In this document: piece after piece, positions 36,775 to 62,939 of the stretch
How positions within the stretch are numbered: the stretch's first letter is position 1
How the letters are laid out: each line of letters begins with the position of its first letter
Source of the DNA: an uncultured bacterium
GTDB taxonomy: Bacteria; Babelota; Babeliae; Babelales; Babelaceae
NCBI GenBank assembly: GCA_963824495.1
Contig: CAWGPQ010000011.1
Location: 32,001-96,000 of the forward strand
DNA length: 64,000 nucleotides
Direction: 5' to 3'
The notes under the pieces: generated by a model
Databases searched by the model: none
Told to the model about the DNA's origin: nothing
The model's input: only the letters and a program-made list of their open reading frames with translations
Program-made: the position numbers and the translations under genes

Positions 36775-37389
36775 TTAAGAGGACGATTCCGATGGAGGTA
36801 TATGGCCGGGAGCCAGAGCAAATTGGGCAATTATGTCAGCTATCTCAGGCGGAAGAGGTTGCTGCTGACCTGCTGGTTGCCATGCAAACTCCCCGACTCG
36901 ACCTGCTCGTGATATTCTGCCAAATACAACTCTGCCAGCTTCTCTTTCTAAGAATGCAGCAACATCAGGGTGATAATATCTATAGGCAAGGGTGATAGGT
37001 ACATCACCGTTCGCATTAGCAAGAGCAGGGTTAGCACCACGTGCCATCAAAAGTTGAACTGTACTTAGCTTGCCATTACGAGCTGCCAAGTGTAACGGAG
37101 TGTTACCCTCTGCATTTTGTAGGTTAATATTTGCACCATGATCAAGTAATAGTTTTACGACATCGTCTTGTTGCTGCCCATATAAGAGCAGTGGCAGTAT
37201 TGCCATATTTATCGACATAATTAACATCAGCACCAGCGTTGAGTGCAGTTTCTACTGCTTGGGGGTCGCCAGCTTCGACTGCTCTTCGTAATTTAAAGCT
37301 GGCGGGATTAGTTGGCTCTTGGACTTGCATAGACTCTAAGGACATAGCGTGAGATAATGATAGGCCAATCTTGTAATATTTTTAATCAC
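36775..37389 (-). pseudogene. Ankyrin cassette copy A; internally deleted and frameshifted
   Basis: 5' end matches copy D except for a 10-nt deletion in the signal peptide; jumps from repeat 2 to DDVVKLLLDHG; retains the LPPEIADIIAQF tail. Confidence 0.85.
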
Positions 37390-37592
37390 AGTCTGTCCAT
37401 TCCTATTTATTAGCTATTAACTTTATTTTTAATTATTGCATAAATATAGCAAGATAGTCAAGAAATAAAATGCAAAAAATTACCTCACAAGATGATAAAG
37501 CTTTATAGTCGAGCTAAAAAAGCTGCTGAGTTTTCGGGCAATCGCCTGTGCTGATTGAATCTTATTTGACGCTCGGATGGGCTGCGGGCCGA
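37205..37592. repeat. Direct repeat of ~42275..42670 (5' end and upstream region of copies A and D)
   Basis: Near-identical sequence from ATCGACATAATTAACATC through GATGGGCTGCGGGCC. Confidence 0.9.
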
Positions 37593-37642
37593 ATCAACCT
37601 GGCCAAATAAGAAAGACAATTCATGATAAAGTTAAACAATTA

Positions 37643-37769
37643 CAGGATATAACATGTATGTCTTGCAAATATCTCTTGTCTATGTATAAAAGCTTTAATT
37701 GAGCAAGACGTAATTAATCATTTTTTCTTACTACCGAAACATACTTGTGCTAATAAGCCAAGAAACTTA
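37643..37769. repeat. Array 3' flank; inverted copy of 55981..56108
   Basis: AAGAAAAAATGATTAATTACGTCTTGCTCAAT...GACATACATGTT follows the terminal intact gene of both arrays (copies B and G). Confidence 0.85.
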
Positions 37770-39332
37770 CTAGCGTGACCCTGATGGAGGTATATGGCCG
37801 GCGGCCTGAGCAAACTGGGCAATTTGTCTCGCAACTTCAGGCGGAAGAAGCTCACCACCTGTAGGCTGCCATGCAAAGCCTCCTCTACGACCTAATTGTG
37901 ACACTCTACCAAACACAGCACGACCAGCTTCTCTTGCTAATAAGTCAACAATAGCAGAACGATGGTATTGCCGGGCGAGAGCTAGAGGAGTCTGACCTTG
38001 TCGGTTAACAATAGTAGCATTAGCACCACGTGCAAGTAAGAGTCTAACGGTAGTTAAATTACCGTTGCGAGCTGCTAAATGTAACGGTGTATTACCCTCT
38101 GCATTTTGTAGGTTAATATTTGCACCAAGATCAAGTAATAGTTTTACGATATCGTCATGTCCTTGAGCAGCAGCCCAATGTAATGCTGTCATACCATGAC
38201 TATCTTGATGGTTAATGTTAATTTGAGGGGGTATCATTGGGGGCAGTATGGCATAAGAAGCAAGCAGCTTACGCAACTGAGCAAGCAATGGCTCTGCTTG
38301 CGGTAGAGTGGAAAGTAATTCTACCACGTGCTTAGTATCTCCCCGGGCTGCTGCATAAGCAAGCTCGTTGCCTTCAAATACAGCACTTAAAGCTTGTAAG
38401 ACGCGTTGTTTTAGGTTGCCAGCGTTTGGTATTCTTGCTCCATGCTCTATGAGCACTCGAGCAGTTGCCAGTAGTCTGGGTCTAGATGAAGCAATGGTTA
38501 TCGACTTTAAAAGAGTAGACATAAGGATAGTGTTACCACCACTATCTACGCGATTAACATCAGCACCATGCTCTATAAGTAACTCAACTACGTTTCTATG
38601 TCCATTTATAGCTGCCTCCCCAAGAGCAGTATTACCATAATGAGGTGTATAATTAACATCAGCTCCATATTCTATAAGTAATCTAACTGTATCTGTATGT
38701 CCACCACGAGCTGCAGCCATAAGAGCAGTTTGCCCATACCTATCAGCACGATTAACATCAGCACCATGCTCTATAAGCACTCTAACTATATCTGTATATC
38801 GCCCTGGCCCTGCAGCTGCCAACATAAGGGCAGTATTATCATCATTATTAGCACGATTAACATCAGCACCATGCTCTATAAGCAATCTAACTGTTTCTGT
38901 CTTTCCATAACCAGCTGCCAAGATAAGAGCAGTATAACCATCACTGTCAGCATGATTAACATCAGCACCATATTTTATAAGTAATCTAACTATCTCTATA
39001 CGCCCATTTAGAGCTGCGAGTGAAAGAGCAGTATCACCTTTACTATTGGTATGATTAACATCAGCACTGTGCTCTATTAAGTATTGAACTACTTGGGTCT
39101 CTCCCCTCATGGTTTCCACTATGAGAGCAGTATAGCCAAGAGTATCAGCGTAATTAACATCAGCACCAGCATTGAGTGCAGCTTCAACTTCTTCAGCATT
39201 TCCATTATAGGCTGCATTTATCAATTCTTGATTGGCAGGGTTTGCTGGTCCTTGTACGTGCATACACTCTAAGAGCAGAACATTAGATAACGACAAGCCA
39301 ATCATGAGTAATTTTATAGCAACTTTAATCAT
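37770..39332 (-). CDS. Secreted ankyrin cassette copy B (8 variable repeats, constant block, F-box-like tail)
   Basis: Signal MIKVAIKLLMIGLSLSNVLLLEC; G.TAL..AA..G...VRLLIEHGADVN repeats; tail LLPPEVARQIAQF. Confidence 0.92.
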   Translation of the reverse strand: MIKVAIKLLMIGLSLSNVLLLECMHVQGPANPANQELINAAYNGNAEEVEAALNAGADVNYADTLGYTALIVETMRGETQVVQYLIEHSADVNHTNSKGDTALSLAALNGRIEIVRLLIKYGADVNHADSDGYTALILAAGYGKTETVRLLIEHGADVNRANNDDNTALMLAAAGPGRYTDIVRVLIEHGADVNRADRYGQTALMAAARGGHTDTVRLLIEYGADVNYTPHYGNTALGEAAINGHRNVVELLIEHGADVNRVDSGGNTILMSTLLKSITIASSRPRLLATARVLIEHGARIPNAGNLKQRVLQALSAVFEGNELAYAAARGDTKHVVELLSTLPQAEPLLAQLRKLLASYAILPPMIPPQININHQDSHGMTALHWAAAQGHDDIVKLLLDLGANINLQNAEGNTPLHLAARNGNLTTVRLLLARGANATIVNRQGQTPLALARQYHRSAIVDLLAREAGRAVFGRVSQLGRRGGFAWQPTGGELLPPEVARQIAQFAQAAGHIPPSGSR

Positions 39333-39504
39333 ACTATAATTCTTTCCATTAAGATCTTATATTTCTATTTTTGATTATATCAAAAGCCAAGCAATATAAT
39401 CAATACTTTAACGATTTTTAACTTTGCATGCTTTAGGACATACTTTTGAGCACTGTTTGCTTAAGCTGCTTATCCTTGCCAATAGCTCACAGTATAGGTT
39501 ACTC
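39333..39504 (-). repeat. Conserved ~172-bp inter-cassette spacer (copy 1 of 5)
   Basis: GAGTAACCTATACTGTGAGC...TTTTGATATAATCAAAA...GGAAAGAATTATAGT read on the minus strand. Confidence 0.95.
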
Positions 39505-41004
39505 TCATGCTGACCCTGATGGAGGTATATGGCCGGCGGCCTGAGCAAACTGGGCAATTTGTCTCGCAACTTCAGGCGGAAGAAGCTCACCTGCAGGCTG
39601 CCATTCAAACTCTCCGACTCGACCTGCTCGTGATACTCTACCAAACACAGCACGACCAGCTTCTCTTGCTAATAAGTCAACAATAGCAGAACGATGGTAT
39701 TGCCGGGCGAGAGCTAGAGGAGTCTGACCTTGTCGGTTAACAATAGTAGCATTAGCACCACGTGCGAGTAAGAGTCTAACGGTAGTTAAATTACCGTTGC
39801 GAGCTGCTAAATGTAACGGTGTATTACCCTCTGCATTTTGTAGGTTAATATTTGCACCAAGATCAAGTAATAGTTTTACGATATCGTCATGTCCTTGAGC
39901 AGCAGCCCAATGTAACGCTGTCATACCATGACTATCTTGATGGTTAATAGTAAGTGGTTGAGCTTGCGGTAGAGTGGAAAGTAATTCTACCACGTGCTTA
40001 GTATCTCCCCGGGCTGCTGCATAAGCAAGCTCGTTGCCTTCAAATACAGCACTTAAAGCAGCACTTAAAGCTTGTAAGACGCGTTGTTTTAGGTTGCCAG
40101 CGTTTGGTATTCTTGCTCCATGCTCTATGAGCACTCGAGCAGTTGCCAGTAGTCTGGGTCTAGATGAAGCAATGGTTATCGACTTTAAAAGAGTAGACAT
40201 AAGGATAGTGTTACCACCACTATCTACGCGATTAACATCAGCACCATGCTCTATAAGTAACTCAACTACGTTTCTATGTCCATTTATAGCTGCCTCCCCA
40301 AGAGCAGTATTACCATAATGAGGTGTATAATTAACATCAGCTCCATATTCTATAAGTAATCTAACTGTATCTGTATGTCCACCACGAGCTGCAGCCATAA
40401 GAGCAGTTTGCCCATACCTATCAGCATGATTAACATCAGCACCATGCTCTATAAGCAATCTAACTGTTTCTGTCTTTCCATAACCAGCTGCCAACATAAG
40501 GGCAGTATTATCACCATTATTAGCACGATTAACATCAGCACCATGCTCTATGAGTAACTCAGCTGTGTTTCTACGTCCACCTCTAGCTGCCTCCATAAGA
40601 GCAGTATTGCCATAATTATCAGCATGATTAACATCAGCACCATATTTTATAAGTAATCTAACTATCTCTATGTAGCCATTTAGAGCTGCGAGTGAAAGAG
40701 CAGTATCACCTTCACTATTGGTATGATTAACATCAGCACTGTGCTCTATTAAGTATTGAACTACTTGGGTCTCTCCCCTCATGGTTTCCACTATGAGAGC
40801 AGTATAGCCAAGAGTATCAGCGTAATTAACGTCAGCACCAGCATTGAGTGCAGCTTCAACTTCTTCAGCATTTCCATTATAGGCTGCATTTATCAATTCT
40901 TGGTTGGCAGGGTTTGCTGGTCCTTGTACGTGCATACACTCTAAGAGCAGAACATTAGATAACGACAAGCCAATCATGAGTAATTTTATAGCAACTTTAA
41001 TCAT
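39505..41004 (-). CDS. Secreted ankyrin cassette copy C (8 variable repeats)
   Basis: As copy B; 12-nt duplication giving ALSAALSA; hybrid tail. Confidence 0.92.
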   Translation of the reverse strand: MIKVAIKLLMIGLSLSNVLLLECMHVQGPANPANQELINAAYNGNAEEVEAALNAGADVNYADTLGYTALIVETMRGETQVVQYLIEHSADVNHTNSEGDTALSLAALNGYIEIVRLLIKYGADVNHADNYGNTALMEAARGGRRNTAELLIEHGADVNRANNGDNTALMLAAGYGKTETVRLLIEHGADVNHADRYGQTALMAAARGGHTDTVRLLIEYGADVNYTPHYGNTALGEAAINGHRNVVELLIEHGADVNRVDSGGNTILMSTLLKSITIASSRPRLLATARVLIEHGARIPNAGNLKQRVLQALSAALSAVFEGNELAYAAARGDTKHVVELLSTLPQAQPLTINHQDSHGMTALHWAAAQGHDDIVKLLLDLGANINLQNAEGNTPLHLAARNGNLTTVRLLLARGANATIVNRQGQTPLALARQYHRSAIVDLLAREAGRAVFGRVSRAGRVGEFEWQPAGELLPPEVARQIAQFAQAAGHIPPSGSA

Positions 41005-41177: not shown

Positions 41178-42467
41178 TCACACTGACCCTGATGGAGGTA
41201 TATGGCCGGCGGCCTGAGCAAACTGGGCAATTTGTCTCGCAACTTCAGGCGGAAGAAGCTCACCACCTGTAGGCTGCCATGCAAAGCCTCCTCTACGACC
41301 TAATTGTGACACTCTACCAAACACAGCACGACCTGCTTGTGCTTCTAAGAAAGCGACAACATTAGGATGATGATACCTATAGGCAAGAGCCAAAGCAGTC
41401 TGACCTTGTCGGTTAACAACAGTAGCATTAGCGCCACGCGCAAGTAACAGTCTAACGGTACTCAAGTTGCCATTACGAGCTGCTAAGTGTAACGGTGTAT
41501 TACCCTGTGCATTTTGTAGATCAATATTTGCACCAAACTCAAGTAATAGTTTTATTATATCGTCATGTCCTTGAGCAGCAGCCCAATGTAACGCTGTTAT
41601 ACCATGACTATCTTGACGATTAATAGTAATAGAAGGTATTATTGGTGGTAGTATGGCATAAGAAGCAAGCAGCTTATGCAACCGAGCAAGCAACGATTTG
41701 GCCTGAGGTGATTGTGGTTGAGCCTGGGGTAAAGTAGAAAGTAGTCCTACTACAAGCTTAGTATTACCCAGAGCTGCTGCATAAGCGAGTGGGTTGCCCT
41801 CAAATATAGCATTTAAAACTCGCCTTACGGCTTGCTCTGCATTAGGAGCGTTAGGAAAACTTTGAGGAAACCTTTGAAGCTCTTCTTCAGTTGGTATTGT
41901 TGCTCCATGCTCTATAAGTAATCCAGCTATATCAGCACGCCGCCTAGCCAGTGCCCATATAAGTGGAGTCTTGCCATCATTATTAGCACGATTAACATCA
42001 GCGTTATGATCTATAAGAATTCTAATTATATCAACATGTCCCTCCCTGGCGGCTAATGTAAGGGCAGTACTGCCATGGACATTAGCACGATTAACATCAG
42101 CACCATTCTGCAAGAGCAATATCACTATATCTTCATGTCCACCTCTAGCTGCCTCCATAAGAGCAGTATAGCCAGTATTATTTGCATAATTAACATCAGC
42201 CTTATGCGCTATAAGTAGTCTAACTATATCTGTATGTCCATTTAGGGCTGCCCACATAAGGGCAGTATAGCCAGCATTATCGACATAATTAACATCGGCA
42301 CCAGCGTTGAGTGCAGCTTCTACTGCTTGGGGGTCGCCAGCTTCGACTGCTCTTTGTAATTTAAAGCTGGCGGGGTTAGTTGGCTCTTGGACTTGCATAG
42401 ACTCTAAGGACATAGCGTGAGATAATGATAGGCCAATCAGGAGTAATCTTGTAATAATTTTAATCAC
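41178..42467 (-). CDS. Secreted ankyrin cassette copy D (5 variable repeats)
   Basis: Variant signal MIKIITRLLLIGLSLSHAMSLES; same constant block and tail. Confidence 0.92.
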   Translation of the reverse strand: MIKIITRLLLIGLSLSHAMSLESMQVQEPTNPASFKLQRAVEAGDPQAVEAALNAGADVNYVDNAGYTALMWAALNGHTDIVRLLIAHKADVNYANNTGYTALMEAARGGHEDIVILLLQNGADVNRANVHGSTALTLAAREGHVDIIRILIDHNADVNRANNDGKTPLIWALARRRADIAGLLIEHGATIPTEEELQRFPQSFPNAPNAEQAVRRVLNAIFEGNPLAYAAALGNTKLVVGLLSTLPQAQPQSPQAKSLLARLHKLLASYAILPPIIPSITINRQDSHGITALHWAAAQGHDDIIKLLLEFGANIDLQNAQGNTPLHLAARNGNLSTVRLLLARGANATVVNRQGQTALALAYRYHHPNVVAFLEAQAGRAVFGRVSQLGRRGGFAWQPTGGELLPPEVARQIAQFAQAAGHIPPSGSV

Positions 42468-42721: not shown

Positions 42722-43639
42722 TCAAATAAGCTTGTCATTTTTATAAGAATGCCAAGTGATTGTATCGGGGTCAGCACCATGACTCATAAGAATCTGTGCT
42801 GTTTTTTTATTATTATGCAAAACTGCATTACTAAGAGGCGTATTGCCTTTATTATCTTTAAGATTAACATCAGCATTATGACATCTTATAAGTAATTCTA
42901 CTAGTTGATGCTTGCCGTTTAAAGCAGCAAGATGAAGCGGGGCCCTACCTTGTTTGTCAGGAAGATTGACGTTAAAACTATGGTCTATTATAAGTCTTAA
43001 CACACGACCTATTTCGCCTTTGGCTGCTGCTTTATGAAGAGCAGTGGTACCGCTTCTATTGAGCCCATTGATTGCAATTCCATGATAGGATTTATGCGTG
43101 CTTACTGATGTATTATGTGCTAGATTTATATTTTCAGGAAGGGGTAACTTGTGTTTCTCATATGCACTGGTAACGCCTCCTCCGTTTTCTATGAGAAAAT
43201 TAGCAATGATGCTATTATTGCTATATAGAGCAGTCATGAGGGGCGTATTGCCTTTTTTATCCTGACTATTAACATTAGCACCATAGTGCATAAGTAGCTT
43301 GATAATTTCAATTTGGTCACTAAGGGCAGCAATATGTAGGGGGCTCTTGCCACCTGCATTAGGAAGATTAACATCAAACTTATATTTTTCTATAAGGTCT
43401 TTTACACGATTTATTTCGCCTTTGGCTGCTGCTTTATGAAGAGCAGTTGTACCGTTGCTATTGAGAGCATTAACTTTAAAATTCCCATAACAAACTCTTT
43501 TCACTATAGGGTCTGTTGATGCTTCGGATTCAGGTTTACGCTTTTTGGTGGGCTGCTCCTCCATGCTTACAATTTTTTGACACGTAAAAGCTAGCACAAT
43601 ACTACTAAAAATAAAAAACCTGCAGTTTAAGTTTTGCAT
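42722..43639 (-). CDS. Secreted ankyrin protein (different family) with internal duplication and NLS-like motif
   Basis: Signal peptide followed by SMEEQPTKKRKP; two copies of N.LN..GTTALHKAAAKGEI.RV..LI; start probably ATG 43639 (ORF track 43666). Confidence 0.85.
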   Translation of the reverse strand: MQNLNCRFFIFSSIVLAFTCQKIVSMEEQPTKKRKPESEASTDPIVKRVCYGNFKVNALNSNGTTALHKAAAKGEINRVKDLIEKYKFDVNLPNAGGKSPLHIAALSDQIEIIKLLMHYGANVNSQDKKGNTPLMTALYSNNSIIANFLIENGGGVTSAYEKHKLPLPENINLAHNTSVSTHKSYHGIAINGLNRSGTTALHKAAAKGEIGRVLRLIIDHSFNVNLPDKQGRAPLHLAALNGKHQLVELLIRCHNADVNLKDNKGNTPLSNAVLHNNKKTAQILMSHGADPDTITWHSYKNDKLI

Positions 43640-43870
43640 GGGTGATTCTTTCTTATAATGGTGCATGTTAAGCTACTAACGTACATTAATATACCATTTA
43701 ACCATAAAACAGTATTTTATTAAAGCAAGAAAAACCGGATACCCAACAAGCAAATCAATTTTAAATTGCTAAAATAAAAAATTATCGAAAAAATTAGGAT
43801 TAGTATGCTATGCTTAGTACAGAGATGGGTAGTAGCAAGAAAACTGAGCGCGAGAAAGGCACTCTCCACT

Positions 43871-45316
43871 ATGAAAAAAATTATCTTTATTGGTACTGCT
43901 ACAAGCATTATTATTGCCAGCATTATGTTCTCAGCTGGCTGCCAGCAACTTTGGCGGAACTGGTCAGGCTGTCAACGATGTAGCCCCTTATATATCTTTC
44001 AGCCAAACAATCTTCAAGAACTTCGTGAAATTATATTACGAGCTACTTCAAGCAATCGCAAGATTCGTGCTTACGGCTCTTCGTACTCATGGAGTCCTAT
44101 AGTCTGCACTGACTACCTCATTAATACTGACAAGCTTAATCGCATACTGCGTGTCGATACCGCTACAAACTGCGTACGAGTAGAAGCCGGCATTAAGCTA
44201 TACGAGCTTAATCACGAACTTGCCAAGATTGGGCTTGCTTTGCCAAATCAATCGTTTACACAAGCACAAAGTTTGGCTGGTGCACTCGCGACTGCAACCC
44301 ACGGAACAGGCCACACGGGTACACTTTCTGATTTTGCAATACAGATAGAGCTTGTAACTGCTGATGGTCGAGTTCACCTATTAACTCCACAAACTGCACC
44401 CGAAGAATTTGCCGCTGCGCGTGTCAATATTGGCGCACTAGGCATTATCTATGCGATAACTCTTCAGTGCACACCCCTATTTAAGGTGAGTCATGCACGA
44501 ACAGTTCTTGATTGGAATACGTTACGCAAAAGTTACCTAAGATTATATAATGACCACGACTACTTTATGTTTTATTGGAATCCTTATACCAATAAAGTCA
44601 TTACCTATACCTGGGACAAAGTTCCTGAAGCAACTCCGTCAACCACTTCATTTTTTCATCTCATACAAGAGAAGGTGCTTTTGGGGCCATGGATAAACAG
44701 TCTATGTGCACGTTTAGTTGATTGGTTTCCGCATGTAACACCTTATCTTGGTGATATTTTTTATAAAGCAACCACGGTTTCTCATCAAATAGCCTACCCT
44801 CACGATAGCATGTGCTCTTCGGGTAAAGCGCCGTATGAGCTTTTTTATGGAAAAGAAGCAACAAATATCCCTATCGAGTCAGCAGAAATTGCTATTCCCA
44901 TCGAAAAGCTTGTTGATGCCGCTGGTGATATTCACAGACTTGTTAAAAAATATTTGAAGCTGGGTCATTATATTTTTATGTGTGGTATCTTGTTTAGGTT
45001 TGTTAATGCTGAAGAGAACACGTACTTAAGCCCTGCCGCAGGTCAGAATGTAGTATTTGTCAATATCACAAGCAGCCGCATGCCCGAAGATTTTTATCGT
45101 GAATTTGAAGAGCTCATGCTCAACTATAATGGACGTCCTCATTGGGGCAAGATTAACTTTTTAGATTATGAACGTACTCATAAACTTTATGGAGAAAAGC
45201 TTGATGAGTTTAACCGAGTTCGAATGCAGCTTGATCCTCATGGCACTTTCTCTAACCCTTATGTTCAAAAAGTCTGTACACCGGGACACTTTATGCCAAC
45301 TACAGTTTTTTCATAG
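43871..45316 (+). CDS. FAD-linked aldonolactone oxidase (GULO/ALO family)
   Basis: FAD-binding-4 pattern (VRVEAGIKL, SLAGALATATHGTG, GALGII) and C-terminal GRPHWGK; probable start MKKIIF at 43871. Confidence 0.85.
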   Translation: MKKIIFIGTATSIIIASIMFSAGCQQLWRNWSGCQRCSPLYIFQPNNLQELREIILRATSSNRKIRAYGSSYSWSPIVCTDYLINTDKLNRILRVDTATNCVRVEAGIKLYELNHELAKIGLALPNQSFTQAQSLAGALATATHGTGHTGTLSDFAIQIELVTADGRVHLLTPQTAPEEFAAARVNIGALGIIYAITLQCTPLFKVSHARTVLDWNTLRKSYLRLYNDHDYFMFYWNPYTNKVITYTWDKVPEATPSTTSFFHLIQEKVLLGPWINSLCARLVDWFPHVTPYLGDIFYKATTVSHQIAYPHDSMCSSGKAPYELFYGKEATNIPIESAEIAIPIEKLVDAAGDIHRLVKKYLKLGHYIFMCGILFRFVNAEENTYLSPAAGQNVVFVNITSSRMPEDFYREFEELMLNYNGRPHWGKINFLDYERTHKLYGEKLDEFNRVRMQLDPHGTFSNPYVQKVCTPGHFMPTTVFS

Positions 45317-46793
45317 GTGATGTGACAAAAAAAAGCCCGAGCGTTTTTTCAGCAAAGTCCTGATATGACCATTCTGTTATAAATTCAATTACGCTATAGT
45401 TATACATCTCTCTCAGTTTTTCTATAATATCTTTTTTACGATACAGCACTGCGCCAAGAGAATTGGGATAGCTCCATACGTTACTACCAGCAGTAAGATG
45501 CCATGCTCGTAGATTTTCAGATAACCGTATACAGGTTGTCCTTGGATCTTCTTGAAGTGTCAAATAGAAACCATACGCATATGTTCTTTCTAACTCTCTG
45601 ATGCAATAGGTAAGATTACATTCTCGAGCAGCTCCGACTGTTGGAACAGCTAAGACTATATGCTCTTCCCGTACCTGCTGAATAAGCTCACTCAAGAATA
45701 ACGGAAAATTATCTCTCATGGCAGGGCTATAGCGAATAAGCGTTGTGCGAGGAAATGCTTGAACAAGCTTTCTATAGACATCAGTTTTTTTACTCGAAGG
45801 TCCGTAAATAACTATAATCTTGCCGATACCTTGAACACGAGCACGGAGTGATGCAAGACAGGGCTTCAGTAATGGCACCGTTCTATCGGAAACGAAAAGC
45901 ATATAACAGACTTTACTATGCATATAGTTCTTAATAAGCTCTTGCTTGTGGGACATCAAGCGAGCATACTGTGGCCATGAGTAAATGGTAAGTCCAAGTT
46001 CCCATTGCCGGGTAGCGCTTAATCGATGTTGACTGATAGGATTAGCTTGGTTCCATATGTATACAGGTGGTTTTGGTGGTATTTCATAGACATGATCGGC
46101 TCCCGCCATTTCTAGCATAGGAAGCATAAGGGCGGTATCGGGACTTGGGGCAACAGGAGCAAAACTGCTTGCTATAGTAAGATCTTCAAGTTTAACCTTT
46201 TTAAAAAGCCATGCACGAAATGTACGTAAGTGAGAATATAAAAACGGAGCTTGTCTCACGTTATTTTCATTAATCCTAAGCGATGCAAGCCTGCTCAAAG
46301 ATAGGTTTAGAAAGTTTCCCCCACTTGGCCACCACTCAGCCCCACCATAGGTTATCCACACATTACCGTTACGCATGTAAATATCATTAACTAATGTAAG
46401 CACGCCAGGATGAGCAAGCCAATCATCACCATCAAGGTGAACAATAATCTCATGGTCGTCACACATATGAGCTGCCAGGTAATGATTAGCCATACCACCA
46501 ACCCACTCTTTATTACGTATAAGTACTGTGCGATGCTCTTGTTTTTTTTCTTTGATATAGAGCTCTACGTGCTCGCCTGTACCATCTGATGATGCGTCAT
46601 CAACATAGATGACTCGATAATTATGATAATTTTGAGAAAACACTGAATCTAAGTTGCGTCGATACCAATCATTATTATTATATGACGTTATAATAACAAC
46701 AAGAGGAAGTTCGCCTTTTTGAGCTTGAGGAACTCTACCGTATATCGATAGTCCAAACAACAAGAAACTTGCCCACATAAAGTACATGCTCAT
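45300..46793 (-). CDS. GT2-family glycosyltransferase with signal/anchor
   Basis: ITSYNN, SQNY.NYRVIYVDDASSDGT, LDGDDW. Confidence 0.88.
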   Translation of the reverse strand: MSMYFMWASFLLFGLSIYGRVPQAQKGELPLVVIITSYNNNDWYRRNLDSVFSQNYHNYRVIYVDDASSDGTGEHVELYIKEKKQEHRTVLIRNKEWVGGMANHYLAAHMCDDHEIIVHLDGDDWLAHPGVLTLVNDIYMRNGNVWITYGGAEWWPSGGNFLNLSLSRLASLRINENNVRQAPFLYSHLRTFRAWLFKKVKLEDLTIASSFAPVAPSPDTALMLPMLEMAGADHVYEIPPKPPVYIWNQANPISQHRLSATRQWELGLTIYSWPQYARLMSHKQELIKNYMHSKVCYMLFVSDRTVPLLKPCLASLRARVQGIGKIIVIYGPSSKKTDVYRKLVQAFPRTTLIRYSPAMRDNFPLFLSELIQQVREEHIVLAVPTVGAARECNLTYCIRELERTYAYGFYLTLQEDPRTTCIRLSENLRAWHLTAGSNVWSYPNSLGAVLYRKKDIIEKLREMYNYSVIEFITEWSYQDFAEKTLGLFFVTSPMKKL

Positions 46794-49429: not shown

Positions 49430-49440
49430 AGCTTCCCTCC

Positions 49441-53627: not shown

Positions 53628-54818
53628 GTGATTAAAGTTGCTATAAAATTACTCATGATTGGCTTGTCGTTATCTAATGTTCTGCTCTTGGAGTGTATGC
53701 ACGTACAAGGACTAGCAAGCCCTGCCAACCAAGAATTGATAAATGCAGCAAAGAATGGCAATCTTGAAGGAGTCGAAGCTGCCCTCAATGCTGGCGTTGA
53801 TGTTAATTATGCTGATAGTGATGGTTATACTGCTCTTATGTGGGCAGCTGTTTATGAACATACAGAGATGGTTAGATTGCTTATAGAGCAGGGTGCTGAT
53901 GTTAATCGTGCTAATAATAATGGCACTACTGCTCTTATGTGGGCAGCTGTTTATGGACATACAGATATAGTTAGATTGCTTATAGAGCAGGGTGCTGAAG
54001 TTAATCGTGCTAATAATTATGGCAGTACTGCTCTCATATGGGCAGCTCTATATGAGCGCATAAATACAGCTAGAGTGCTTATAGGGCATGGGGCAAGAAT
54101 ACCCACTGAAGGGGATCTTCAAAGATTTGCTCAAGGGGTTCCTGACTTTCCTGCGGCTCTACAACGGACCAGGCAAGCTTTAAGTGCTGTATTTGAAGGT
54201 AATGAGCTTGCTTATGCGGCCGCCCGGGGCGATACCAAGCGCGTGGTAGTATTACTTTCTACTTTACCCCAGGCTCAACCACAATCACCTCAGACCAAAT
54301 CGTTGATTGCTCAATTGCGTAAACTGCTTGCTTCTTATGCCATACTGGCCCCAATGATACCCCCTCAAATTAACATTAACCATCCAGATAGTCATGGTAT
54401 GACAGCGTTACATTGGGCTGCTGCTCAAGGATATAACGATATAATAAAACTATTACTTGATTTTGGTGCAAATATTAACCCACAAAATGCAGAGGGTAAT
54501 ACACCGTTACACTTAGCAGCTCGCAACGGCAACCTGAGTGTGGTTAAACTTTTGCTTGCGCGTGGCGCTAATGCTACTGTTGTTAACCGACAAGGTCAGA
54601 CTGCTTTGGCTCTTGCCTATAGGTATCATCATCCTAATGTTGTCGCTTTCTTAGAAGCACAAGCAGGTCGTGCTGTGTTTGGTAGAGTGTCACGAGCAGG
54701 TCGAGTCGGAGGGTTTGCATGGCAGCCTACAGGCACTACCCTTCCCCCTGAGATAGTTGACATAATTGCCCAGTTTGCTCAGGCCGCCGGCCATATACCT
54801 CCATCAGGGTCAGCATGA
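53628..54818 (+). CDS. Secreted ankyrin cassette copy F (4 variable repeats)
   Basis: Constant signal, constant block and LPPEIVDIIAQF tail. Confidence 0.92.
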   Translation: MIKVAIKLLMIGLSLSNVLLLECMHVQGLASPANQELINAAKNGNLEGVEAALNAGVDVNYADSDGYTALMWAAVYEHTEMVRLLIEQGADVNRANNNGTTALMWAAVYGHTDIVRLLIEQGAEVNRANNYGSTALIWAALYERINTARVLIGHGARIPTEGDLQRFAQGVPDFPAALQRTRQALSAVFEGNELAYAAARGDTKRVVVLLSTLPQAQPQSPQTKSLIAQLRKLLASYAILAPMIPPQININHPDSHGMTALHWAAAQGYNDIIKLLLDFGANINPQNAEGNTPLHLAARNGNLSVVKLLLARGANATVVNRQGQTALALAYRYHHPNVVAFLEAQAGRAVFGRVSRAGRVGGFAWQPTGTTLPPEIVDIIAQFAQAAGHIPPSGSA

Positions 54819-54990
54819 GAGTAACCTATACTGTGAGCTATTGGCAAGGATAAGCAGCTTAAGCAAACAGTGCTCAAAAGTATGTCCTAAAGCATGCAGA
54901 GTTAAAAATCGTTAAAGTATTGATTATATTGCTTGGCTTTTGATATAATCAAAAATAGAAATATAAGATCTTAATGGAAAGAATTATAGT
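54819..54990 (+). repeat. Conserved inter-cassette spacer (copy 4)
   Basis: Near-identical to the other copies. Confidence 0.95.
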
Positions 54991-55980
54991 ATGATTAAAG
55001 TTGCTATAAAATTACTCATGATTGGCTTGTCGTTATCTAATGTTCTGCTCTTAGAGTGTATGCACGTACAAGGACCAGCAAACCCTGCCAACCAAGAATT
55101 GATAAATGCAGCAGAGAATGGCAATCTTGAAGGAGTCGAAGCTGCCCTCAGTGCTGGCGTTGATGTTAATTATGCCGATGTTCATGGCAATACTGCTCTT
55201 ATCTTGGCAGCTGCTTATGGACATACAGAGATGGTTAGATTGCTTATAGAGCATGGTGCTGATGTTAATCGTGCTAATAATTATGGCAATACTGCTCTTA
55301 CATGGGCAGCTCTATATGGCTACACAGAGATAGCTAGAGTACTTATAGAGCATGGGGCAAGAATACCCACTGGAGAACATCTTCAAAGATTTGCTCTGCA
55401 GCTACGCGCAAGGCAGGTTTTAAGTGCTGTATTTGAGGGTAACGAGCTTGCTTATGCAGCAGCTCGAGGAGATACTAAGCGCGTGGTAGAATTACTTTCC
55501 ACTCTACCGCAAGCTCAACCACTTACTATTAACCATCAAGATGGCCATGGTATGACAGCGTTACATTGGGCTGCTGCTCAAGGACATGACGATATAATAA
55601 AACTATTACTTGAGTTTGGTGCAAATATTAATCTACAAAATGCACAGGGTGATACACCGTTACACTTAGCAGCTCGTAATGGTAACTTAAGTACCGTTAG
55701 ACTCTTACTTGCACGTGGTGCTAATGTTACTATGGTTAACCGACAGGGTCAGACTCCTCTGGTTCTTGCCCAACAATATCATCGTTCTGCTATTGTTGAC
55801 CTATTGGCAAGACAGGCAGGGCGCGCTGTGTTTGGTAGAGTATCACGAGCAGGTCGAGCAGGAGAGTTTGCATGGCAGCCTACACCCACCGGCGCTACCC
55901 TCCCCCCCGAGATAGCTGACATAATTGCCCAGTTTGCTCAGGCCCCGGGCCATATGCCTCCATCAGGGTCATCTTCTTAA
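54991..55980 (+). CDS. Secreted ankyrin cassette copy G (3 variable repeats)
   Basis: Constant signal, constant block and LPPEIADIIAQF tail. Confidence 0.92.
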   Translation: MIKVAIKLLMIGLSLSNVLLLECMHVQGPANPANQELINAAENGNLEGVEAALSAGVDVNYADVHGNTALILAAAYGHTEMVRLLIEHGADVNRANNYGNTALTWAALYGYTEIARVLIEHGARIPTGEHLQRFALQLRARQVLSAVFEGNELAYAAARGDTKRVVELLSTLPQAQPLTINHQDGHGMTALHWAAAQGHDDIIKLLLEFGANINLQNAQGDTPLHLAARNGNLSTVRLLLARGANVTMVNRQGQTPLVLAQQYHRSAIVDLLARQAGRAVFGRVSRAGRAGEFAWQPTPTGATLPPEIADIIAQFAQAPGHMPPSGSSS

Positions 55981-57656: not shown

Positions 57657-58697
57657 ATGAAATATCACACTAAGTCTGGCCGCGTAAAAAAGCTTATTAT
57701 CTATATCTATAGCACGTTTTTTCTTTCTTTGTTTATGAGTAAATTAGCGCAAGCGCATGGATTTGGTGAATACGCCCACATAAAGGTAGTAGGAGGTTGG
57801 AAGAGAATTAAACAGCTCTATGAAAATCAATTCAACCACAAGCAATCAGTAACAAGTTATGACCTACACTTAGGCAAACACGTTAAAGGCTGTGTAAAAG
57901 CAAGTGGCATGAGTAAAACGAATTGTTACTTTAGGGTTGGCTTTGATAAAAATTCTAACAATGATATTTTGTGCACACCAACTCAAAAATTTTACGTACC
58001 CTCGAAAAAGGCATGGGTTTCTGCATATAAGTTACAACCGGGTGATTTTTTATTAAGCAGTGGCATTAAATTGATACCAATTACTTATATAAAGTTCATA
58101 AAAAAACCACTTAGAGTTTACTCAATTGAACTTGAAGGCTATCACACTTATTTATTGGGCGACTATGAGATCTTGACACATAACATGACCTTACCCATTG
58201 CTGCTGGCATGAGCATAGCTATTGCATTTGGCGAGGGAGCGACAGCAGGAGGGGCTGCCGGGGCATTCTTTGGTCCTCCAGTAATTATAGCAGGTGTAGT
58301 AGTTGGTGGCGCAATCGGTCTTGTCATACAAGCCATGGCAAACAACAGAGAGAAAGCAGCGTACCATTTAGATTTTAATATTAAAGATATTACAAGGTTT
58401 CTCAAAGAACGTGATAACATTGAAAGAGAAAGCAGCAACAAAAATGAAGATGCACAAGCTCCTGGAAAGCCCACTGAAAAAGACGGCTATATTCCTGCCA
58501 AAAGCTGGGATGGAAAAAAGGTAAAGAATCCAAATGGTCCTGGATATGGCTGGCCAGACAAAAAGGGAAATATATGGGTACCTTCAGGCCCAAATGGTCA
58601 TGGCGGTCCGCATTGGGATGTTGAATATTCCGGTAAAAGCAAAGATTACGATAATGTTTTTCCAGGCGGAAAAGCCCGTCCTGGTAGAAAAAAATAG
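57657..58697 (+). CDS. Polymorphic toxin: signal peptide, Hint domain, Gly-rich hydrophobic segment, C-terminal nuclease-like (Ntox37-like) domain
   Basis: Hint motifs CTPTQKF, WVSAYKLQPGD, VYSIEL...HTY...THN; toxin tip GWPDKKGNIWVP...HGGPHWDV. Confidence 0.8.
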   Translation: MKYHTKSGRVKKLIIYIYSTFFLSLFMSKLAQAHGFGEYAHIKVVGGWKRIKQLYENQFNHKQSVTSYDLHLGKHVKGCVKASGMSKTNCYFRVGFDKNSNNDILCTPTQKFYVPSKKAWVSAYKLQPGDFLLSSGIKLIPITYIKFIKKPLRVYSIELEGYHTYLLGDYEILTHNMTLPIAAGMSIAIAFGEGATAGGAAGAFFGPPVIIAGVVVGGAIGLVIQAMANNREKAAYHLDFNIKDITRFLKERDNIERESSNKNEDAQAPGKPTEKDGYIPAKSWDGKKVKNPNGPGYGWPDKKGNIWVPSGPNGHGGPHWDVEYSGKSKDYDNVFPGGKARPGRKK

Positions 58698-58706: not shown

Positions 58707-59018
58707 ATGGAAAACAGCCACATTGTTCTTGAATGTAAGCGCGTTAAATTTTTTTCACGACGTGATGAAGACGCATTTTTTGAATGGGCAAAGAAAATTA
58801 AAAGCATAAAATTAATTAAAGGCGTAGGCGATAAGATACAGCTTTACGTAGGCAAACAAGAAATAAGCAACGAAGATTTTAGAGATATCATAGCTTTATT
58901 TAATAGGTACAAAGTTGATATGAAACAGTTAGAACTTTTCTTAAACGAGAGCAATGAGCACCTGTATTATGAATATAAAAAGAGGTATTTGATTAATATT
59001 TACCCTTCAGGTCAATAG
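58707..59018 (+). CDS. Probable cognate immunity protein
   Basis: 103-aa ORF without a signal peptide, 9 nt after the toxin stop; FFS..DE.AFFEW motif. Confidence 0.7.
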   Translation: MENSHIVLECKRVKFFSRRDEDAFFEWAKKIKSIKLIKGVGDKIQLYVGKQEISNEDFRDIIALFNRYKVDMKQLELFLNESNEHLYYEYKKRYLINIYPSGQ

Positions 59019-59333: not shown

Positions 59334-59960
59334 TTATATTATTGTGCTTGTAATACGCTTGCCATAGGTAATTACCAGTTTCTTAAACCCATATCCCTTG
59401 GGCTGGGCTTCATCATCGGCAAGAGTTAGGGTGTAGGTGTCGCCGTTTTTAAACGGAACACAGCTGGAAGGAATATATGATTGTGGAGTTAAGACGCTGG
59501 TCCCAAATCCTCCGGGCACCCCCTCGATCTCTTGTAGTGTGTACTGCTCAAGAACTTGAGGACTAACACAAGGCGTAAAGTAGGCAGCGGATGAAAGGTC
59601 AGGGACTGTAGGAGGTAATCCAATACAAGCACCTGTTTGTGACCAATCTATTGTCGTGAACCCTCTTCCCAACGGCCCATAGCTAAAGCCAAAAGGTTGA
59701 GACAGCGTGTAACTTACAAAAATTAGTATCTTTTCAGACGAAGTGGTAAGCGATAGTGGGAGGAAAGAAGATTTTACCTGGGGCGCACCATTGCTATCTA
59801 CAGACTGATAGATAACACAAAATTGAATTGCGGGCAGATCGGTGTTATTAACAAAGTGTATAGTATAATTATTTTGAGCTGGTGCGAATAAATTTATCAA
59901 AAGCATAGCAATTAAAGCCATAAGTATATGGTAGGGTTTTTTATTAATAGATAGTATCAT
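59334..59960 (-). CDS. Secreted hypothetical protein (beta-rich)
   Basis: AGAGGAG RBS, signal peptide; paralog at 56648..57222. Confidence 0.7.
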   Translation of the reverse strand: MILSINKKPYHILMALIAMLLINLFAPAQNNYTIHFVNNTDLPAIQFCVIYQSVDSNGAPQVKSSFLPLSLTTSSEKILIFVSYTLSQPFGFSYGPLGRGFTTIDWSQTGACIGLPPTVPDLSSAAYFTPCVSPQVLEQYTLQEIEGVPGGFGTSVLTPQSYIPSSCVPFKNGDTYTLTLADDEAQPKGYGFKKLVITYGKRITSTII

Positions 59961-60359
59961 TATATTCTCCTCTTCTTTATTTGCCCCCAGGCTTTTACTG
60001 ATTTTTCTTATTAAATTTATTATAGAAAGAAATTGATAAACAAAACAAGGGTTTTTTTATTTTAATTGAAAATTCTTGTAAGTCATTATGGCTTAATGAG
60101 CGATCATAATAAACAATTCCAAATCCTGCCTCTTAATATAGCCTTAAGCGTCAGATCTACGGAAAGCTCCGCAGGCAGCAGGATGTCTTGTCATATGAGC
60201 TGCAATGAGGTTAATAAAATTGTATCAGGGTTAAATCCTGGATAAAGTTGAAGTGTTTCTTGACGTGGCAATTCTTGAAAGGCTCTCTGTAAAACTTCTT
60301 GTGCTACTGGTATATTTGCATAATTGTGTACTACCAGACATCTTAAAACGCTAACAAAC

Positions 60360-61598
60360 TTACGAATGTGATCCCGATGGCAATGTAGGGTGGACAGGAG
60401 CCTGTGCAAGCTGGGCAATTTGTCTCGCAACTTCAGGCGGAAGAAGCTCACCTGTAGGCTGCCATGCAAAGCCTCCTCTACGACCTAATTGTGATACTCT
60501 GCCAAACACAGCCCGGCCTGCTTGTGCTTCTAAGAAAGCAAGAACATCAGGATGATGATACCTATAGGCAAGAGCCAAAGCAGTCTGACCTTGTCGGTTA
60601 ACAACAGTAGCATTAGCGCCACGCGCAAGCAAAAGTTTAACCACACTCAGGTTGCCGTTGCGAGCTGCTAAGTGTAACGGTGTATTGCCCTCTGCATTTT
60701 GTAGGTTAACATTTGCACCAAAATCAAGTAATAGTTTTACTATATTGTTATGTCCTTGAGCAGCAGCCCAATGTAACGCTGTCATACCTTGAGTATTTTG
60801 ATGGTTAATGTTAAGAGGTTGAGGTGGTATCGCTGGTGGCAGTATGGCACAAGAAGCAAGCAGCTTACGCAACTGAGCAATCAACGATTGCGCCTGAGGT
60901 GATTGTGGTTGAGCTTGGCTTGGAGTGGAAAGTAATTCTACCACGTGCTTAGTATCGCCTCGGGCTGCTGCATAAGCAAGCTCGTTACCCTCAAATACTT
61001 CACTTAGAAATTGCCTTGCCGGCTGCTCTAGGTTCGGAATGCCAAGATTTAGCTGGTTAGGTCTCTGCAGCTCTTCTGCAGTTGGTATTGTCGACTTGTA
61101 AATAACATAACTAAGAGTAGTAAACCCATCTCTATCAGCTACAAGATTAACGTCAGCCCCATGCTCTATAAGCAATCTAGCTATATCTTCATGTCCAGCG
61201 TTAGCTGCCAACATAAGAGCAGTATTGCCAGCATTATTTGCACCATTAACATCACCACCCCGCTCTATAAGCAATCTAACCATCTCTGTATGTTCATAAA
61301 CAGCTGCCCACATAAGAGCAGTATAGCCAAGAGTATCGGCATGATTAACATCAGCACCCTGCTCTAGAAACAGTCTAACTATATCTATATGTCCATAAAC
61401 AGCTGCCATCATAAGAGCTGTCCAACCATTACTGTCAGCATAATTGATATTGGCACCAGCATTGAGTGCAGCTTCTGCTGCATTTATCAATTCTTGGTCG
61501 GCAGGGTTTGCTGGTCCTTGTACGTGCATACACTCTAAGAGCAGAACATTAGATAACGACAAGCCAATCATGAGTAGTTTTATAGCAACTTTAATCAT
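60360..61598 (-). CDS. Secreted ankyrin cassette copy H (4-5 variable repeats; in-frame deletion in the first)
   Basis: Constant signal; ELINAAEAALNAG is 8 aa shorter than in the paralogs; tail LLPPEVARQIAQL. Confidence 0.9.
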   Translation of the reverse strand: MIKVAIKLLMIGLSLSNVLLLECMHVQGPANPADQELINAAEAALNAGANINYADSNGWTALMMAAVYGHIDIVRLFLEQGADVNHADTLGYTALMWAAVYEHTEMVRLLIERGGDVNGANNAGNTALMLAANAGHEDIARLLIEHGADVNLVADRDGFTTLSYVIYKSTIPTAEELQRPNQLNLGIPNLEQPARQFLSEVFEGNELAYAAARGDTKHVVELLSTPSQAQPQSPQAQSLIAQLRKLLASCAILPPAIPPQPLNINHQNTQGMTALHWAAAQGHNNIVKLLLDFGANVNLQNAEGNTPLHLAARNGNLSVVKLLLARGANATVVNRQGQTALALAYRYHHPDVLAFLEAQAGRAVFGRVSQLGRRGGFAWQPTGELLPPEVARQIAQLAQAPVHPTLPSGSHS

Positions 61599-61770
61599 AC
61601 TATAATTCTTTCCATTAAGATCTTATGTTTCTATTTTTGATTATATCAAAAGCCAAGCAATATAACCAACACTTTAATAATTTTTAACTCTGCATGCTTT
61701 AGGACATACTTTTGAGCACTGTTTGCTTAAGCTGCTTATCCTTGCCAATAGCTCACAGTATAGGTTACTC
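61599..61770 (-). repeat. Conserved inter-cassette spacer (copy 5)
   Basis: Near-identical to the other copies, with a few substitutions. Confidence 0.95.
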
Positions 61771-62939
61771 TCATGCTGACCCTGATGGAGGTATATGGCC
61801 GGCGGCCTGAGCAAACTGGGCAATTATGTCAACTATCTCAGGGGGAAGGGTAGCGCCCGTAGGCTGCCATGCAAACTCTCCGACTCGACCTGCTCGTGAC
61901 ACTCTACCAAACACAGCACGACCTGCTTCTCTTGCTAATAAGTCAACAATAGCAGAACGATGGTATTGCCGGGCGAGAGCTAGAGGAGTCTGACCTTGTC
62001 GGTTAACAATAGTAGCATTAGCACCACGTGCAAGTAAGAGTCTAACGGTACTCAAGTTGCCATTACGAGCTGCTAAGTGTAACGGTGTATTACCCTCTGC
62101 ATTTTGTGGGTTAATATTTGCACCAAAATCAAGTAATAGTTTTACGATATCGTTATATCCTTGAGCAGCAGCCCAATGTAACGCTGTCATACCATGACTA
62201 TCTGGATGGTTAATGTTAATTTGAGGGGGTATCATTGGGGGCAGTATGGCACAAGAAGCAAGCAGTTTACGCAATTGAGCAATCAATGGCTCTGCTTGAG
62301 TTGGAGTGGAAAGTAATACTACCACGCGCTTGGCATCGCCCCGGGCTGCTGCATAAGCAAGCTCATTGCCTTCAAATACAGCACTTAAAGCTTGCCTGGT
62401 CCGCTGTAGAGCCGCAGGAAAGTCAGGAACCCCTTGAGCAAATCTTTGAAGATCTCCTTCAGTGGGTATTCTTGCCCCATGCTCCATAAGCAACATCACT
62501 ATATCTTCATGTCCACGTCTAGCTGCCCAAATAAGAGCAGTATCGCCATGTATATTAGCACGATTAACATCGGCTACACGCCCTATAAGCAGTCTAACTG
62601 CCTTTGTATTGTCAATTTGAGCTGCTAATATAAGAGCAGTATTGCCATAATTATTAGCACAATTAACATCAGCACCATGCTCTAGAAGCAATCTAACTAT
62701 ATCTATATGCCTACCCCAAGCCATCCGGCTGAGAGCAGTATTGCCATTGCTGCCAGCATAATTAATATCAGCGCCAGCTTTAAGGGCAGCTTCAACTTCT
62801 TCAGCATTTCCATCATAGGCTGCATTTATCAATTCTTCGTTGGCAGGTTTGCTGGTCCTTGTACGTGCATACACTCTAAGAGCAGAACATTAGATAACGA
62901 CAAGCCAATCATGAGTAATTTTATAGCAACTTTAATCAC
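61771..62939 (-). pseudogene. Ankyrin cassette copy I (4 variable repeats) with a 1-nt frameshift just after the signal peptide
   Basis: GTG start at 62939 encodes the family signal; GCAAACCTGCC instead of GCAAACCCTGCC at ~62846 shifts the frame; the rest is intact. May be a sequencing error. Confidence 0.85.

Follow-up and report, generated by a model that had tools for sequence, protein, structure and literature searches.

A tandemly amplified and probably exported ankyrin family with a variable first block and a conserved rear part in a Dependentiae genome

Dependentiae are widespread, nearly uncultured parasites of protists. The window analyzed here, a 64,000-nt stretch of contig C11 from a Babeliales-type member of the phylum, holds a run of related ankyrin genes, and it raises the question of whether these genes are a diversifying set of host-directed binders, with a variable recognition part and a constant effector part, or the product of duplication and decay. 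The original prediction placed nine copies, A–I, in the window, and all nine were found where it had put them:

36775-37597 (open frame 36775-37233), minus strand: copy A, a pseudogene
36775-37233, minus strand: 3′ part of copy A, still an open frame and coding for the final repeats plus the tail
37770-39332, minus strand: copy B, 520 aa, with leader, 8-repeat first block, second block with loop insert, and tail
39505-41004, minus strand: copy C, 499 aa, with 8-repeat first block and without the loop insert
41178-42467, minus strand: copy D, 429 aa, with variant leader, 5-repeat first block and loop insert
51991-53454, plus strand: copy E, 487 aa counted from GTG, with 8-repeat first block
53628-54818, plus strand: copy F, 396 aa, with 4-repeat first block and loop insert
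54991-55980, plus strand: copy G, 329 aa, shorter than any other intact copy, with 3-repeat first block
60360-61598, minus strand: copy H, 412 aa, with 3 internal repeats between a shortened N-cap and a degenerate C-cap, and with loop insert
61771-62874 (body; leader to 62939), minus strand: copy I, 367 aa from GTG, with 4-repeat first block

Six of the nine copies are fully intact; in the other three, A, E and I, the 5′ end is damaged. Three-frame translation of the 5′ remnant of copy A recovers a D-like leader and N-cap disrupted by frameshifts and an internal deletion, and two segments match the 5′ end of D and its upstream region, 37193-37370 with 96% and 37367-37597 with 95% identity. Copy E has ACG at the place where its relatives have ATG, and its frame opens at a GTG within the leader, which is shortened as a result. 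By the same kind of translation the leader of copy I lies in a different frame from the body, so that copy I is either frameshifted or contains a sequence error. The proposed common signal peptide is therefore intact in six copies, but it is broken in A, has lost its ATG in E and is out of frame in I.

All nine copies match only ankyrin families in Pfam (E values of 1e-13 to 1e-112), and two AlphaFold2 models, in which the helices are paired and reach pLDDT values above 90, agree with membership in the ankyrin repeat class. Each gene encodes a putative Sec-type leader and a first ankyrin domain, in which N- and C-caps enclose 3–8 near-consensus repeats. A constant second domain, about four repeats long and in some copies bearing a loop insert, comes next, and then a conserved tail. 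The tail is some 55 residues long, an Arg-rich helix and after it a short helix that carries the motif LP-x-E-I-A-x-x-I-A-Q-F. Cutting at the 33-residue register, with caps counted, gives first-block repeat numbers of 8 (B), 8 (C), 5 (D), 8 (E), 4 (F), 3 (G), ~4-5 (H) and 4 (I), which reproduces the predicted counts together with the common second block and tail. At the DNA level the repeat period is 99 nt and the repeats are far above chance. Copy G illustrates the layout:

54991-55077, plus strand: leader (aa 1-29)
55078-55374, plus strand: first block (aa 30-128)
55375-55539, plus strand: linker and repeat C0 (aa 129-183)
55540-55803, plus strand: repeats C1-C3 (aa 184-271)
55804-55977, plus strand: tail (aa 272-329)

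The model of copy G has a mean pLDDT of 82.1 and a pTM of 0.75, with residues 31-270 mostly above 90; that of copy F has a mean pLDDT of 80.7, with the helix of the insert (residues 221-236) at 57-68. The tail is modelled at low confidence in both (32-50 in G, 33-55 in F). Two ankyrin domains per protein are predicted by these models, and a Foldseek search with the whole model returned ankyrin proteins only, the best PDB folds being two-domain designed ankyrin fusions. The leader has a basic start, a hydrophobic run and the sequence L-x-[S/C]-M; 32 of the 53 tail-bearing ORFs described below pass a crude hydrophobicity rule, and this rule and a modelled N-terminal helix of low confidence are the basis on which the leader is called.

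An iterated tail model detects the tail in 53 of the 1990 genomic ORFs of at least 80 aa, 52 of which also contain ankyrin units, and the tail-bearing copies are spread over both strands and 13 contigs. Four further copies lie directly to the right of the window at 96.7-102.2 kb of C11, which brings to 13 the copies clustered within 68.8-102.2 kb of that contig. The family is thus larger than the nine members originally proposed. Across 261 genomes of the phylum, strong matches to the tail model are found in the source genome alone, which has 24 scored matches as against at most one weak match each in three of the 260 other genomes; the tail is nearly confined to the source genome. The weak matches P0028, P0034 and P0035 were judged spurious because they are repetitive and without ankyrin, and the match L024 is likewise spurious. 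As a separate observation, the tail motif occurs singly in two other Babeliales genera.

Searches for relatives of the tail led to no known family. The tail alone matched no Pfam family at E values up to 10, its top score in the ESM Atlas (0.78) was under the level of a lead, and every match of a cap-plus-tail profile against PDB sequences was confined to the ankyrin residues of the query (positions 2-41). Neither F-box-like (PF12937) nor PRANC (PF09372) domains were matched in the genome at E values up to 0.01 or up to 1. On these Pfam results for tail and genome the reading of the tail as an F-box or PRANC element was rejected, and only a loose likeness is left.

The repeats of the first block vary most at positions 13, 3, 14, 5, 2, 32, 10, 9 and 33. 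The six positions randomized in DARPin libraries (2, 3, 5, 13, 14 and 33, as given in the available part of PMC8248824) are all among these nine, and per-site variability bears out the prediction that the variable residues are the target-contacting positions randomized in DARPins. The first block has the marks of a DARPin-like scaffold: an N-cap, consensus internal repeats, a C-cap and variability at these six positions. The per-position profile, however, correlates with that of 284 unrelated ankyrin units of the same genome (rho 0.91), and the variability pattern alone is therefore generic and no mark of the family. The framework, described earlier as nearly fixed, is conserved, with entropy below 0.5 bit at positions 4, 6, 7, 8, 11, 12, 23 and 28, but it is not fixed, with a framework dN/dS of 0.5-0.8. 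Such an omega is high for a framework and, with three of nine copies damaged, is compatible with relaxed constraint.

Rates of change were estimated for the face and for the remainder of the unit. The estimates use 40 unique units from 48 that score at least 35 bits in 15 core genes, with caps, low scorers and units with indels left out. By counting, dN/dS is 1.48 at the six face positions against 0.64 elsewhere in the unit, and dividing face dN by global dS gives 1.96 (bootstrap range 1.63-2.43). Twenty disjoint nearest pairs give 1.41 for the face against 0.80 for the rest (Fisher P = 0.0025), and for a face value above 1 the independent pairs give P of 0.07-0.09. With site classes fitted apart on a scaled tree, GY94 omega comes to 1.17-1.25 on the face and to 0.57 at the remaining sites, and in likelihood terms the face does not differ from 1 (2ΔlnL 2.8, two parameters). 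By segment, dN/dS is 0.52 for the leader, 0.40 for the N-cap, 0.30 for the linker, 0.26 for C1 and C2, 0.41 for C3 and 0.38 for the tail. Patchwise exchange between copies inflates pairwise counts and breaks the assumptions of tree models. The ranges across methods are 1.2-2.0 for the six positions, 0.5-0.8 for the framework and 0.19-0.47 for the second block and tail. The other ankyrin genes of the genome have lower values (face 0.63-0.91, rest 0.44-0.46).

The face positions fit neutral-to-positive evolution, with values above 1 not formally demonstrated, and the second domain and tail are under purifying selection. The predicted division into a variable first block and a constant rear part is borne out by these ratios, and an even spread of change with dN/dS well below 1, which was checked for as the contrary pattern, is not what we found. 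An account of the same numbers that does without adaptation is birth and death, in which the family grew through tandem duplication and through drift in a population both small and isolated, the face varies only for want of structural constraint (omega ~1), and many copies are decaying. A face omega indistinguishable from 1 and a generic profile of variable positions agree with it, as do the face pN/pS of 0.63-0.91 in other ankyrin genes, which is near neutral everywhere, and the damage to A, E and I; a model of this kind has already been proposed, in the available text of PMC4209131, for F-box and BTB families of amoeba chlamydiae. It accords less well with face dN exceeding dS in every counting analysis (1.41-2.0, with the whole bootstrap range against global dS above 1), with face and rest both evolving faster than in the other ankyrin genes, with purifying selection on the rear part of the same genes, or with six fully intact copies and conserved promoter-like spacers. 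We regard non-adaptive birth and death as a serious alternative that is nevertheless rather unlikely. The idea of a diversifying family stands in part: counting gives ratios above 1, but the likelihood estimate does not significantly exceed 1, the independent pairs fall short at the P values given, and the profile is generic.

How the family changes can be read from the copies themselves. B and E, on opposite strands, share a 961-nt stretch at 100% identity, and E is a mosaic whose first block is of B type and whose rear part is of C type, with perfect runs of 951 nt shared with B and 648 nt shared with C. Perfect runs between copies of 951, 648 and 453 nt have P of 1e-8 or less, and in the comparison of C with B blocks without a mismatch adjoin stretches with 21 mismatches per 99 nt. 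The tandem array, the damaged copies A, E and I, and a copy number sharply unlike that of relatives are the hallmarks of birth-and-death evolution. Genes of the family are duplicated and decay, 99-nt units are gained and lost, copies exchange patches, and amino acids on the concave face of the first domain change fast.

An assembly across repeats of this kind may contain chimeras, and public contigs across the region are short. Eight soil-metagenome runs from two studies contain 8-57% of the sampled sequence words, and none of the sequencing runs listed as matching the region is an RNA run. In four runs the joints between contigs (~116-620 nt as listed) skip or step back by about 1.2-3.0 kb; these joints are uninformative on strain differences or assembly because the contigs are short and at least one joint (52987 to 54269) fits a paralog in the source genome, copy B.

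The spacers between units are ~170 nt long and 96-100% identical; the candidate promoters before G and F are:

54819-54990, plus strand: spacer between F and G, with a sigma-70-like site at 54920-54949 (TTGATT, 18 nt, TG, TATAAT)
53556-53585, plus strand: sigma-70-like site before F, the same as that before G and a match to the consensus

Each intact gene has its own promoter-like spacer, for which consensus matches suggest promoter function. This arrangement bears on antigenic or phase variation, in which silent cassettes would be copied into one expressed site. Patchwise exchange and perfect tracts of up to 961 nt are what such copying would leave, but all intact copies are full-length genes, each with a start, a leader and a promoter-like spacer of its own, and there is no single expression site of the kind that, with promoterless partial cassettes, defines a silent-cassette locus. 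Moreover, the copies occur on either strand and are scattered over 13 contigs, and the presumed protist hosts would lack adaptive immunity. We consider antigenic variation very improbable. As regards diversity-generating retroelements, a Pfam scan of 32 ORFs of the window turned up no reverse transcriptase.

The reading that we moderately favor is that of a lineage-specific, tandemly amplified, exported ankyrin multigene family in which the variable domain picks host proteins and the constant part provides a link. The proteins would exit the cytoplasm through Sec and arrive in the host by a secretin pathway or in vesicles, where they would serve as adaptors: the variable domain would select different host proteins, and the constant domain and tail would tether these to one common partner or place. 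A host-directed role, with the constant part as a putative effector module, is suggested by the leader peptides, the lifestyle of the group and published analogy (available part of PMC6561590). The genome has two secretins, and neither VirB4 (PF03135) nor VirD4 (PF02534) gave a match in this 96.85%-complete genome, for which reason type IV secretion effectors of the Legionella/Coxiella type were rejected.

A Sec-type leader alone reaches the periplasm only, and the proteins might instead remain in the envelope of the bacterium itself, for example as inhibitors of its own or incoming enzymes or toxins, with no delivery to a host. A polymorphic-toxin gene (PT-HINT and Ntox37) lies within the cluster, and a Bdellovibrio ankyrin self-protection protein, as described in the available part of PMC4686830, is a precedent. 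The toxin, however, has its own small downstream ORF in the usual place of an immunity gene, and the 53 ORFs with the tail, like the 144 with ankyrin that take up 11.4% of the genome, are many more than self-protection should require. Such proteins in the phylum have also been read as host manipulation in the available text of PMC6561590, a reading that is itself inferential. An envelope role appears improbable.

Within the favored reading of exported adaptors, the constant second domain and tail might be a docking module for one host machine, such as degradation, trafficking or an organelle surface, so that a binder-plus-adaptor set would send many host proteins to the same fate. This is a speculative extension that we think unlikely as it stands. 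If true, it would make the family a bacterial counterpart of ankyrin-SOCS-box and ankyrin-PRANC substrate receptors built on a new C-terminal motif.

The family is a new branch of the gene expansion already known in Dependentiae. The many ankyrin proteins of the phylum have been counted in papers and not understood, and the family offers a concrete handle on them, with a defined two-domain build as modelled, a fast surface set against a conserved, putative docking part, and a testable new tail motif. Should each variable domain turn out to have its own host target, the family would show how a tiny genome renews its binders through duplication, repeat shuffling and exchange, and it would also be a source of natural stable ankyrin binders with a known evolutionary history. 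If they do not, the family is a well-documented case of birth and death in a reduced genome.

The closest comparison is with the ankyrin expansions of other Dependentiae, Chromulinavorax destructans and Babela massiliensis, which share with the source genome the phylum-level lineage and a high frequency of putative leaders. The closest relatives of its DnaK, at 75-79% identity, include Babeliaceae and Dependentiae sequences. C. destructans has 98 ankyrin proteins, 78% with a signal peptide (available part of PMC6561590), and such expansions devote more than 10% of the genome to ankyrin genes, as the source genome does with 144 ORFs and 11.4%. In secretins without a type IV system the source genome also resembles published Dependentiae, TM6 having components of type II secretion and gspD in two copies (PMC6561590 and PMC4776705, available parts). 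The available portions of these two papers count the proteins and describe no subfamilies, two-domain build, C-terminal tail or per-site selection.

Designed ankyrins are the best PDB matches of the family by profile and by fold, and DARPins share with it the N-cap, near-consensus 33-residue internal repeats, the C-cap and the six variable positions, a likeness that is partly circular because the DARPin positions were chosen from natural variability. Unlike DARPins, the family also varies at positions 9, 10 and 32, has 3–8 repeats and carries a second, constant domain and a tail. Ankyrin proteins with a PRANC (F-box-like C-terminal) element occur in poxviruses, Orientia and Wolbachia, and they are similar in build, with a short conserved element at the C-terminus, after the variable repeats. 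The first helix of the F-box starts L-P-x-E-I. The tail helix of the family opens in the same way, but there is no room after the motif for helices 2 and 3. The NEX/PEX F-box and BTB-box families of the Parachlamydiaceae are also huge, lineage-specific and effector-type, with tandem arrays, pseudogenes and birth and death, and in the available text of PMC4209131 their global omega is 0.29-0.63, with purifying selection only and none that is positive. Unlike them, the ankyrin family belongs to another phylum and is built from other domains, and it has a site class with omega of at least 1 and evident exchange between copies.

The window spans C11:32001-96000 of a genome of 1,334,754 bases in 21 contigs, and its stretch between 36.7 and 63 kb contains nine related genes: E-G are encoded on the plus strand, A-D and H-I on the minus strand. 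The Pfam matches of all nine are to ankyrin families only. When cut at a 33-residue register, the proteins follow a common plan:

Leader: ~29 residues
First ankyrin domain: N-cap, one to six internal repeats and C-cap
Linker and second ankyrin domain: constant, four repeats (C0-C3)
Tail: ~55 residues

Cutting at this register also reproduces the first-block repeat counts originally predicted for B-I (8, 8, 5, 8, 4, 3, ~4-5 and 4). In the second domain, B, D, F, H and I carry a loop insert of ~20-30 residues that C, E and G lack. Three copies have damaged 5' ends: A carries frameshifts and an internal deletion, E has ACG at the position of its relatives' ATG, with a frame that opens at a GTG within the leader, and the leader and body of I lie in different frames. 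Other genes in the window are:

42722-43666 (-): ankyrin gene unrelated to the copies, within the cluster, 314 aa, with a leader; two similar halves, indicating internal duplication
43805-45316 (+): FAD/ALO-type oxidase with a hydrophobic N-terminus, adjoining the glycosyltransferase pair
45300-46793 (-) and 46790-48316 (-): paralogous family-2 glycosyltransferases with a 4-nt overlap and hydrophobic N-termini
57657-58697 (+): polymorphic-toxin-type gene within the ankyrin cluster, with a leader, PT-HINT and a C-terminal Ntox37
58707-59018 (+): 103-aa ORF, no Pfam match, 9 nt after the toxin-type gene, where an immunity gene is usually found
59334-59960 (-): intact member of a small exported family with no Pfam match, 208 aa
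56648-57315 (-): second copy of this family, split into ORFs of 104 and 118 aa that share N- and C-terminal motifs with the intact protein, and so probably frameshifted

Variability was measured on first-domain units of the 15 core genes, defined by the conserved linker. Units scoring at least 35 bits against a 33-position model without indels were kept, 48 in total with 40 unique sequences, to the exclusion of N-caps, degenerate C-caps and the 35-residue unit found in B and E. Entropy is highest at repeat positions 13, 3, 14, 5, 2, 32, 10, 9 and 33 and falls under 0.5 bit at 4, 6, 7, 8, 11, 12, 23 and 28. According to PMC8248824, DARPin libraries are randomised at positions 2, 3, 5, 13, 14 and 33, and the target may also be contacted by framework position 10. 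All six library positions are thus among the nine of highest entropy, in agreement with the original prediction that the variable residues are those randomised in DARPins. A matching entropy profile was obtained from 284 ankyrin units of tail-less genes (Spearman rho 0.91), as expected given that the DARPin positions came from natural variability, and the pattern by itself does not distinguish the tail-bearing family from other ankyrin units.

Substitution rates were compared between the face (the six library positions) and the rest of the 33-residue unit.

dN/dS at the face and the rest of first-domain units
Nei-Gojobori, all 780 pairs: face 1.48; rest 0.64
Face dN over global dS: 1.96 (bootstrap over units 1.63-2.43)
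GY94, fixed tree: face 1.17-1.25, not established as above 1 (2dlnL 2.8); rest 0.57, below 1 (2dlnL 45)
20 disjoint nearest pairs: face 1.41; rest 0.80; excess over neutral, binomial P 0.08; between classes, Fisher P 0.0025

Elsewhere in the protein, dN/dS was 0.52 for the leader, 0.40 for the N-cap, 0.30 for the linker plus C0, 0.26 for C1 plus C2 (0.47 and 0.19 alone, respectively), 0.41 for C3 and 0.38 for the tail. As controls, the nearest-pair count gave 0.91 (face) and 0.44 (rest) for tail-less ankyrin genes of the genome (42 pairs), and 0.63 and 0.46 for more distant tail-bearing genes (48 pairs). We read these values to mean that the first-domain face evolves at or above the neutral rate, and faster than every other part or ankyrin gene tested. 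The face rates fit diversifying selection but fall short of formal proof of an omega above 1 (GY94 2dlnL 2.8; binomial P 0.08).

The nucleotide sequences of the copies are patchy. The ~170-nt spacers are 96-100% identical between units, whereas first domains are 69-88% identical, and B and E, which lie on opposite strands, are identical over 961 bases. Beyond its B-like part, E resembles C, the second domain differing by 0-1 mismatches per 99 nt and the tail region containing a divergent patch of 21 mismatches. Between B and C, mismatch-free blocks adjoin divergent ones that centre on two middle repeats and have 21 mismatches per 99 nt. In most of 28 pairs the longest perfect runs are far above expectation (for example 951, 648 and 453 nt, P <=1e-8), to which uneven constraint contributes. 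Identical blocks beside divergent ones, together with the long perfect runs, indicate that the copies are mosaics formed by patchwise exchange and point change, with 99-nt units gained and lost. The assembly could in principle contain chimeras here, and public contigs across the region are short. Given the damaged copies as well, the family evolves by birth and death combined with gene conversion.

AlphaFold2 predicts two ankyrin domains with connecting helices in both G and F (mean pLDDT 82.1 and 80.7, respectively; pTM 0.75 for both), with G residues 31-270 mostly at pLDDT >90. By fold, the closest PDB structures are two-domain fusions of designed ankyrins, at low TM-scores (0.28-0.37). In the tail, the last helix is prolonged through an Arg-rich stretch and followed by a coil and a short helix over the motif L-P-x-E-I-A, all at pLDDT 32-55. 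The tail had no match in Pfam, PDB sequences or Atlas, and its conservation in a segment modelled with no confident fold suggests a peptide that would fold on a partner. The start of the motif resembles F-box helix 1; F-box-like and PRANC models gave no matches, and neither identity was retained. The loop insert (for example F residues 213-246), modelled as a low-confidence helix, weakly matches positions 25-51 of the tail model and may be a tail-derived segment.

With tblastn, the tail was found in four further copies at C11 96.7-102.2 kb, just right of the window, and on many other contigs. A tail model matched 40 ORFs in the first pass and, after one iteration, 53 of 1990 ORFs (>=80 aa), of which 52 contain ankyrin units. 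Genome-wide, 144 ORFs have ankyrin units, amounting to 11.4% of the genome. One 538-aa member (L001, contig C4:1464-3080) contains two sets of constant module and tail, with one tail inside the protein and the other at its end, and seems to be two neighbouring copies fused. A further tail subfamily, more distant (e.g. contigs C17:82420-83889 and C1:4476-5801), differs in its leader, has an extended Asn/Thr-rich stretch ahead of L-P-A-E-I and ends in N-P-N-S-N-S.

Outside the source genome the tail is nearly absent. A word-index protein search returned 11 proteins, nine from the source genome and two from JGI metagenomes. When 1.84 billion representatives were searched exhaustively with a profile, 27 proteins reached E <=0.001, most of which correspond, judged by length, to source-genome ORFs. 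Of ten inspected, the metagenome proteins P0004, P0006, P0015, P0024 and P0032 are genuine relatives with both ankyrin repeats and tail; P0028 and P0034 are repetitive sequences that match falsely. Within the phylum, four of 261 genomes match the tail model: the source genome, with 24 scored matches (best E 9e-33), and three others with one weak match each (E 8e-5 to 9e-4). One of the three is spurious; the other two, one in each of two other genera of the same family, are otherwise different proteins with the core motif close to the C-terminus:

L022, genome G009, contig C1, match 672525-672641: E-L-P-T-E-I-A-H-N-I-M-S-F
L023, genome G025, contig C14, match 1561-1701: E-L-P-S-E-V-A-R-V-I-A-R-F

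The spacer of each intact copy has a promoter-like site, identified by consensus matches only, and the leaders of intact copies end in L-x-[S/C]-M. Among ORFs with a leader-like start, an [S/C]-M pair ends the hydrophobic leader in 42 of the 75 that encode ankyrin repeats and in only 28 of the 610 others; it reflects either shared leader descent or an ankyrin-specific sorting or cleavage motif. Since the genome encodes two secretins and no type IV secretion system parts were found in it, the copies would likely leave via Sec and then a secretin pathway or vesicles, a route proposed for the phylum in PMC6561590. In the proposed steps after translation, the copies would act as adaptor-type effectors, in which the variable first domain would choose the target and the constant domain plus tail would engage a common partner. 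In the literature searched on Dependentiae/Babeliales ankyrins and on ankyrin selection in endosymbionts, we found no description of the tail, the two-domain build or site-class selection in the phylum. Exported ankyrin expansions in Dependentiae have already been published, and the source genome agrees with published Dependentiae in genome size, ankyrin load, two secretins and the lack of type IV parts (PMC6561590, PMC4776705).
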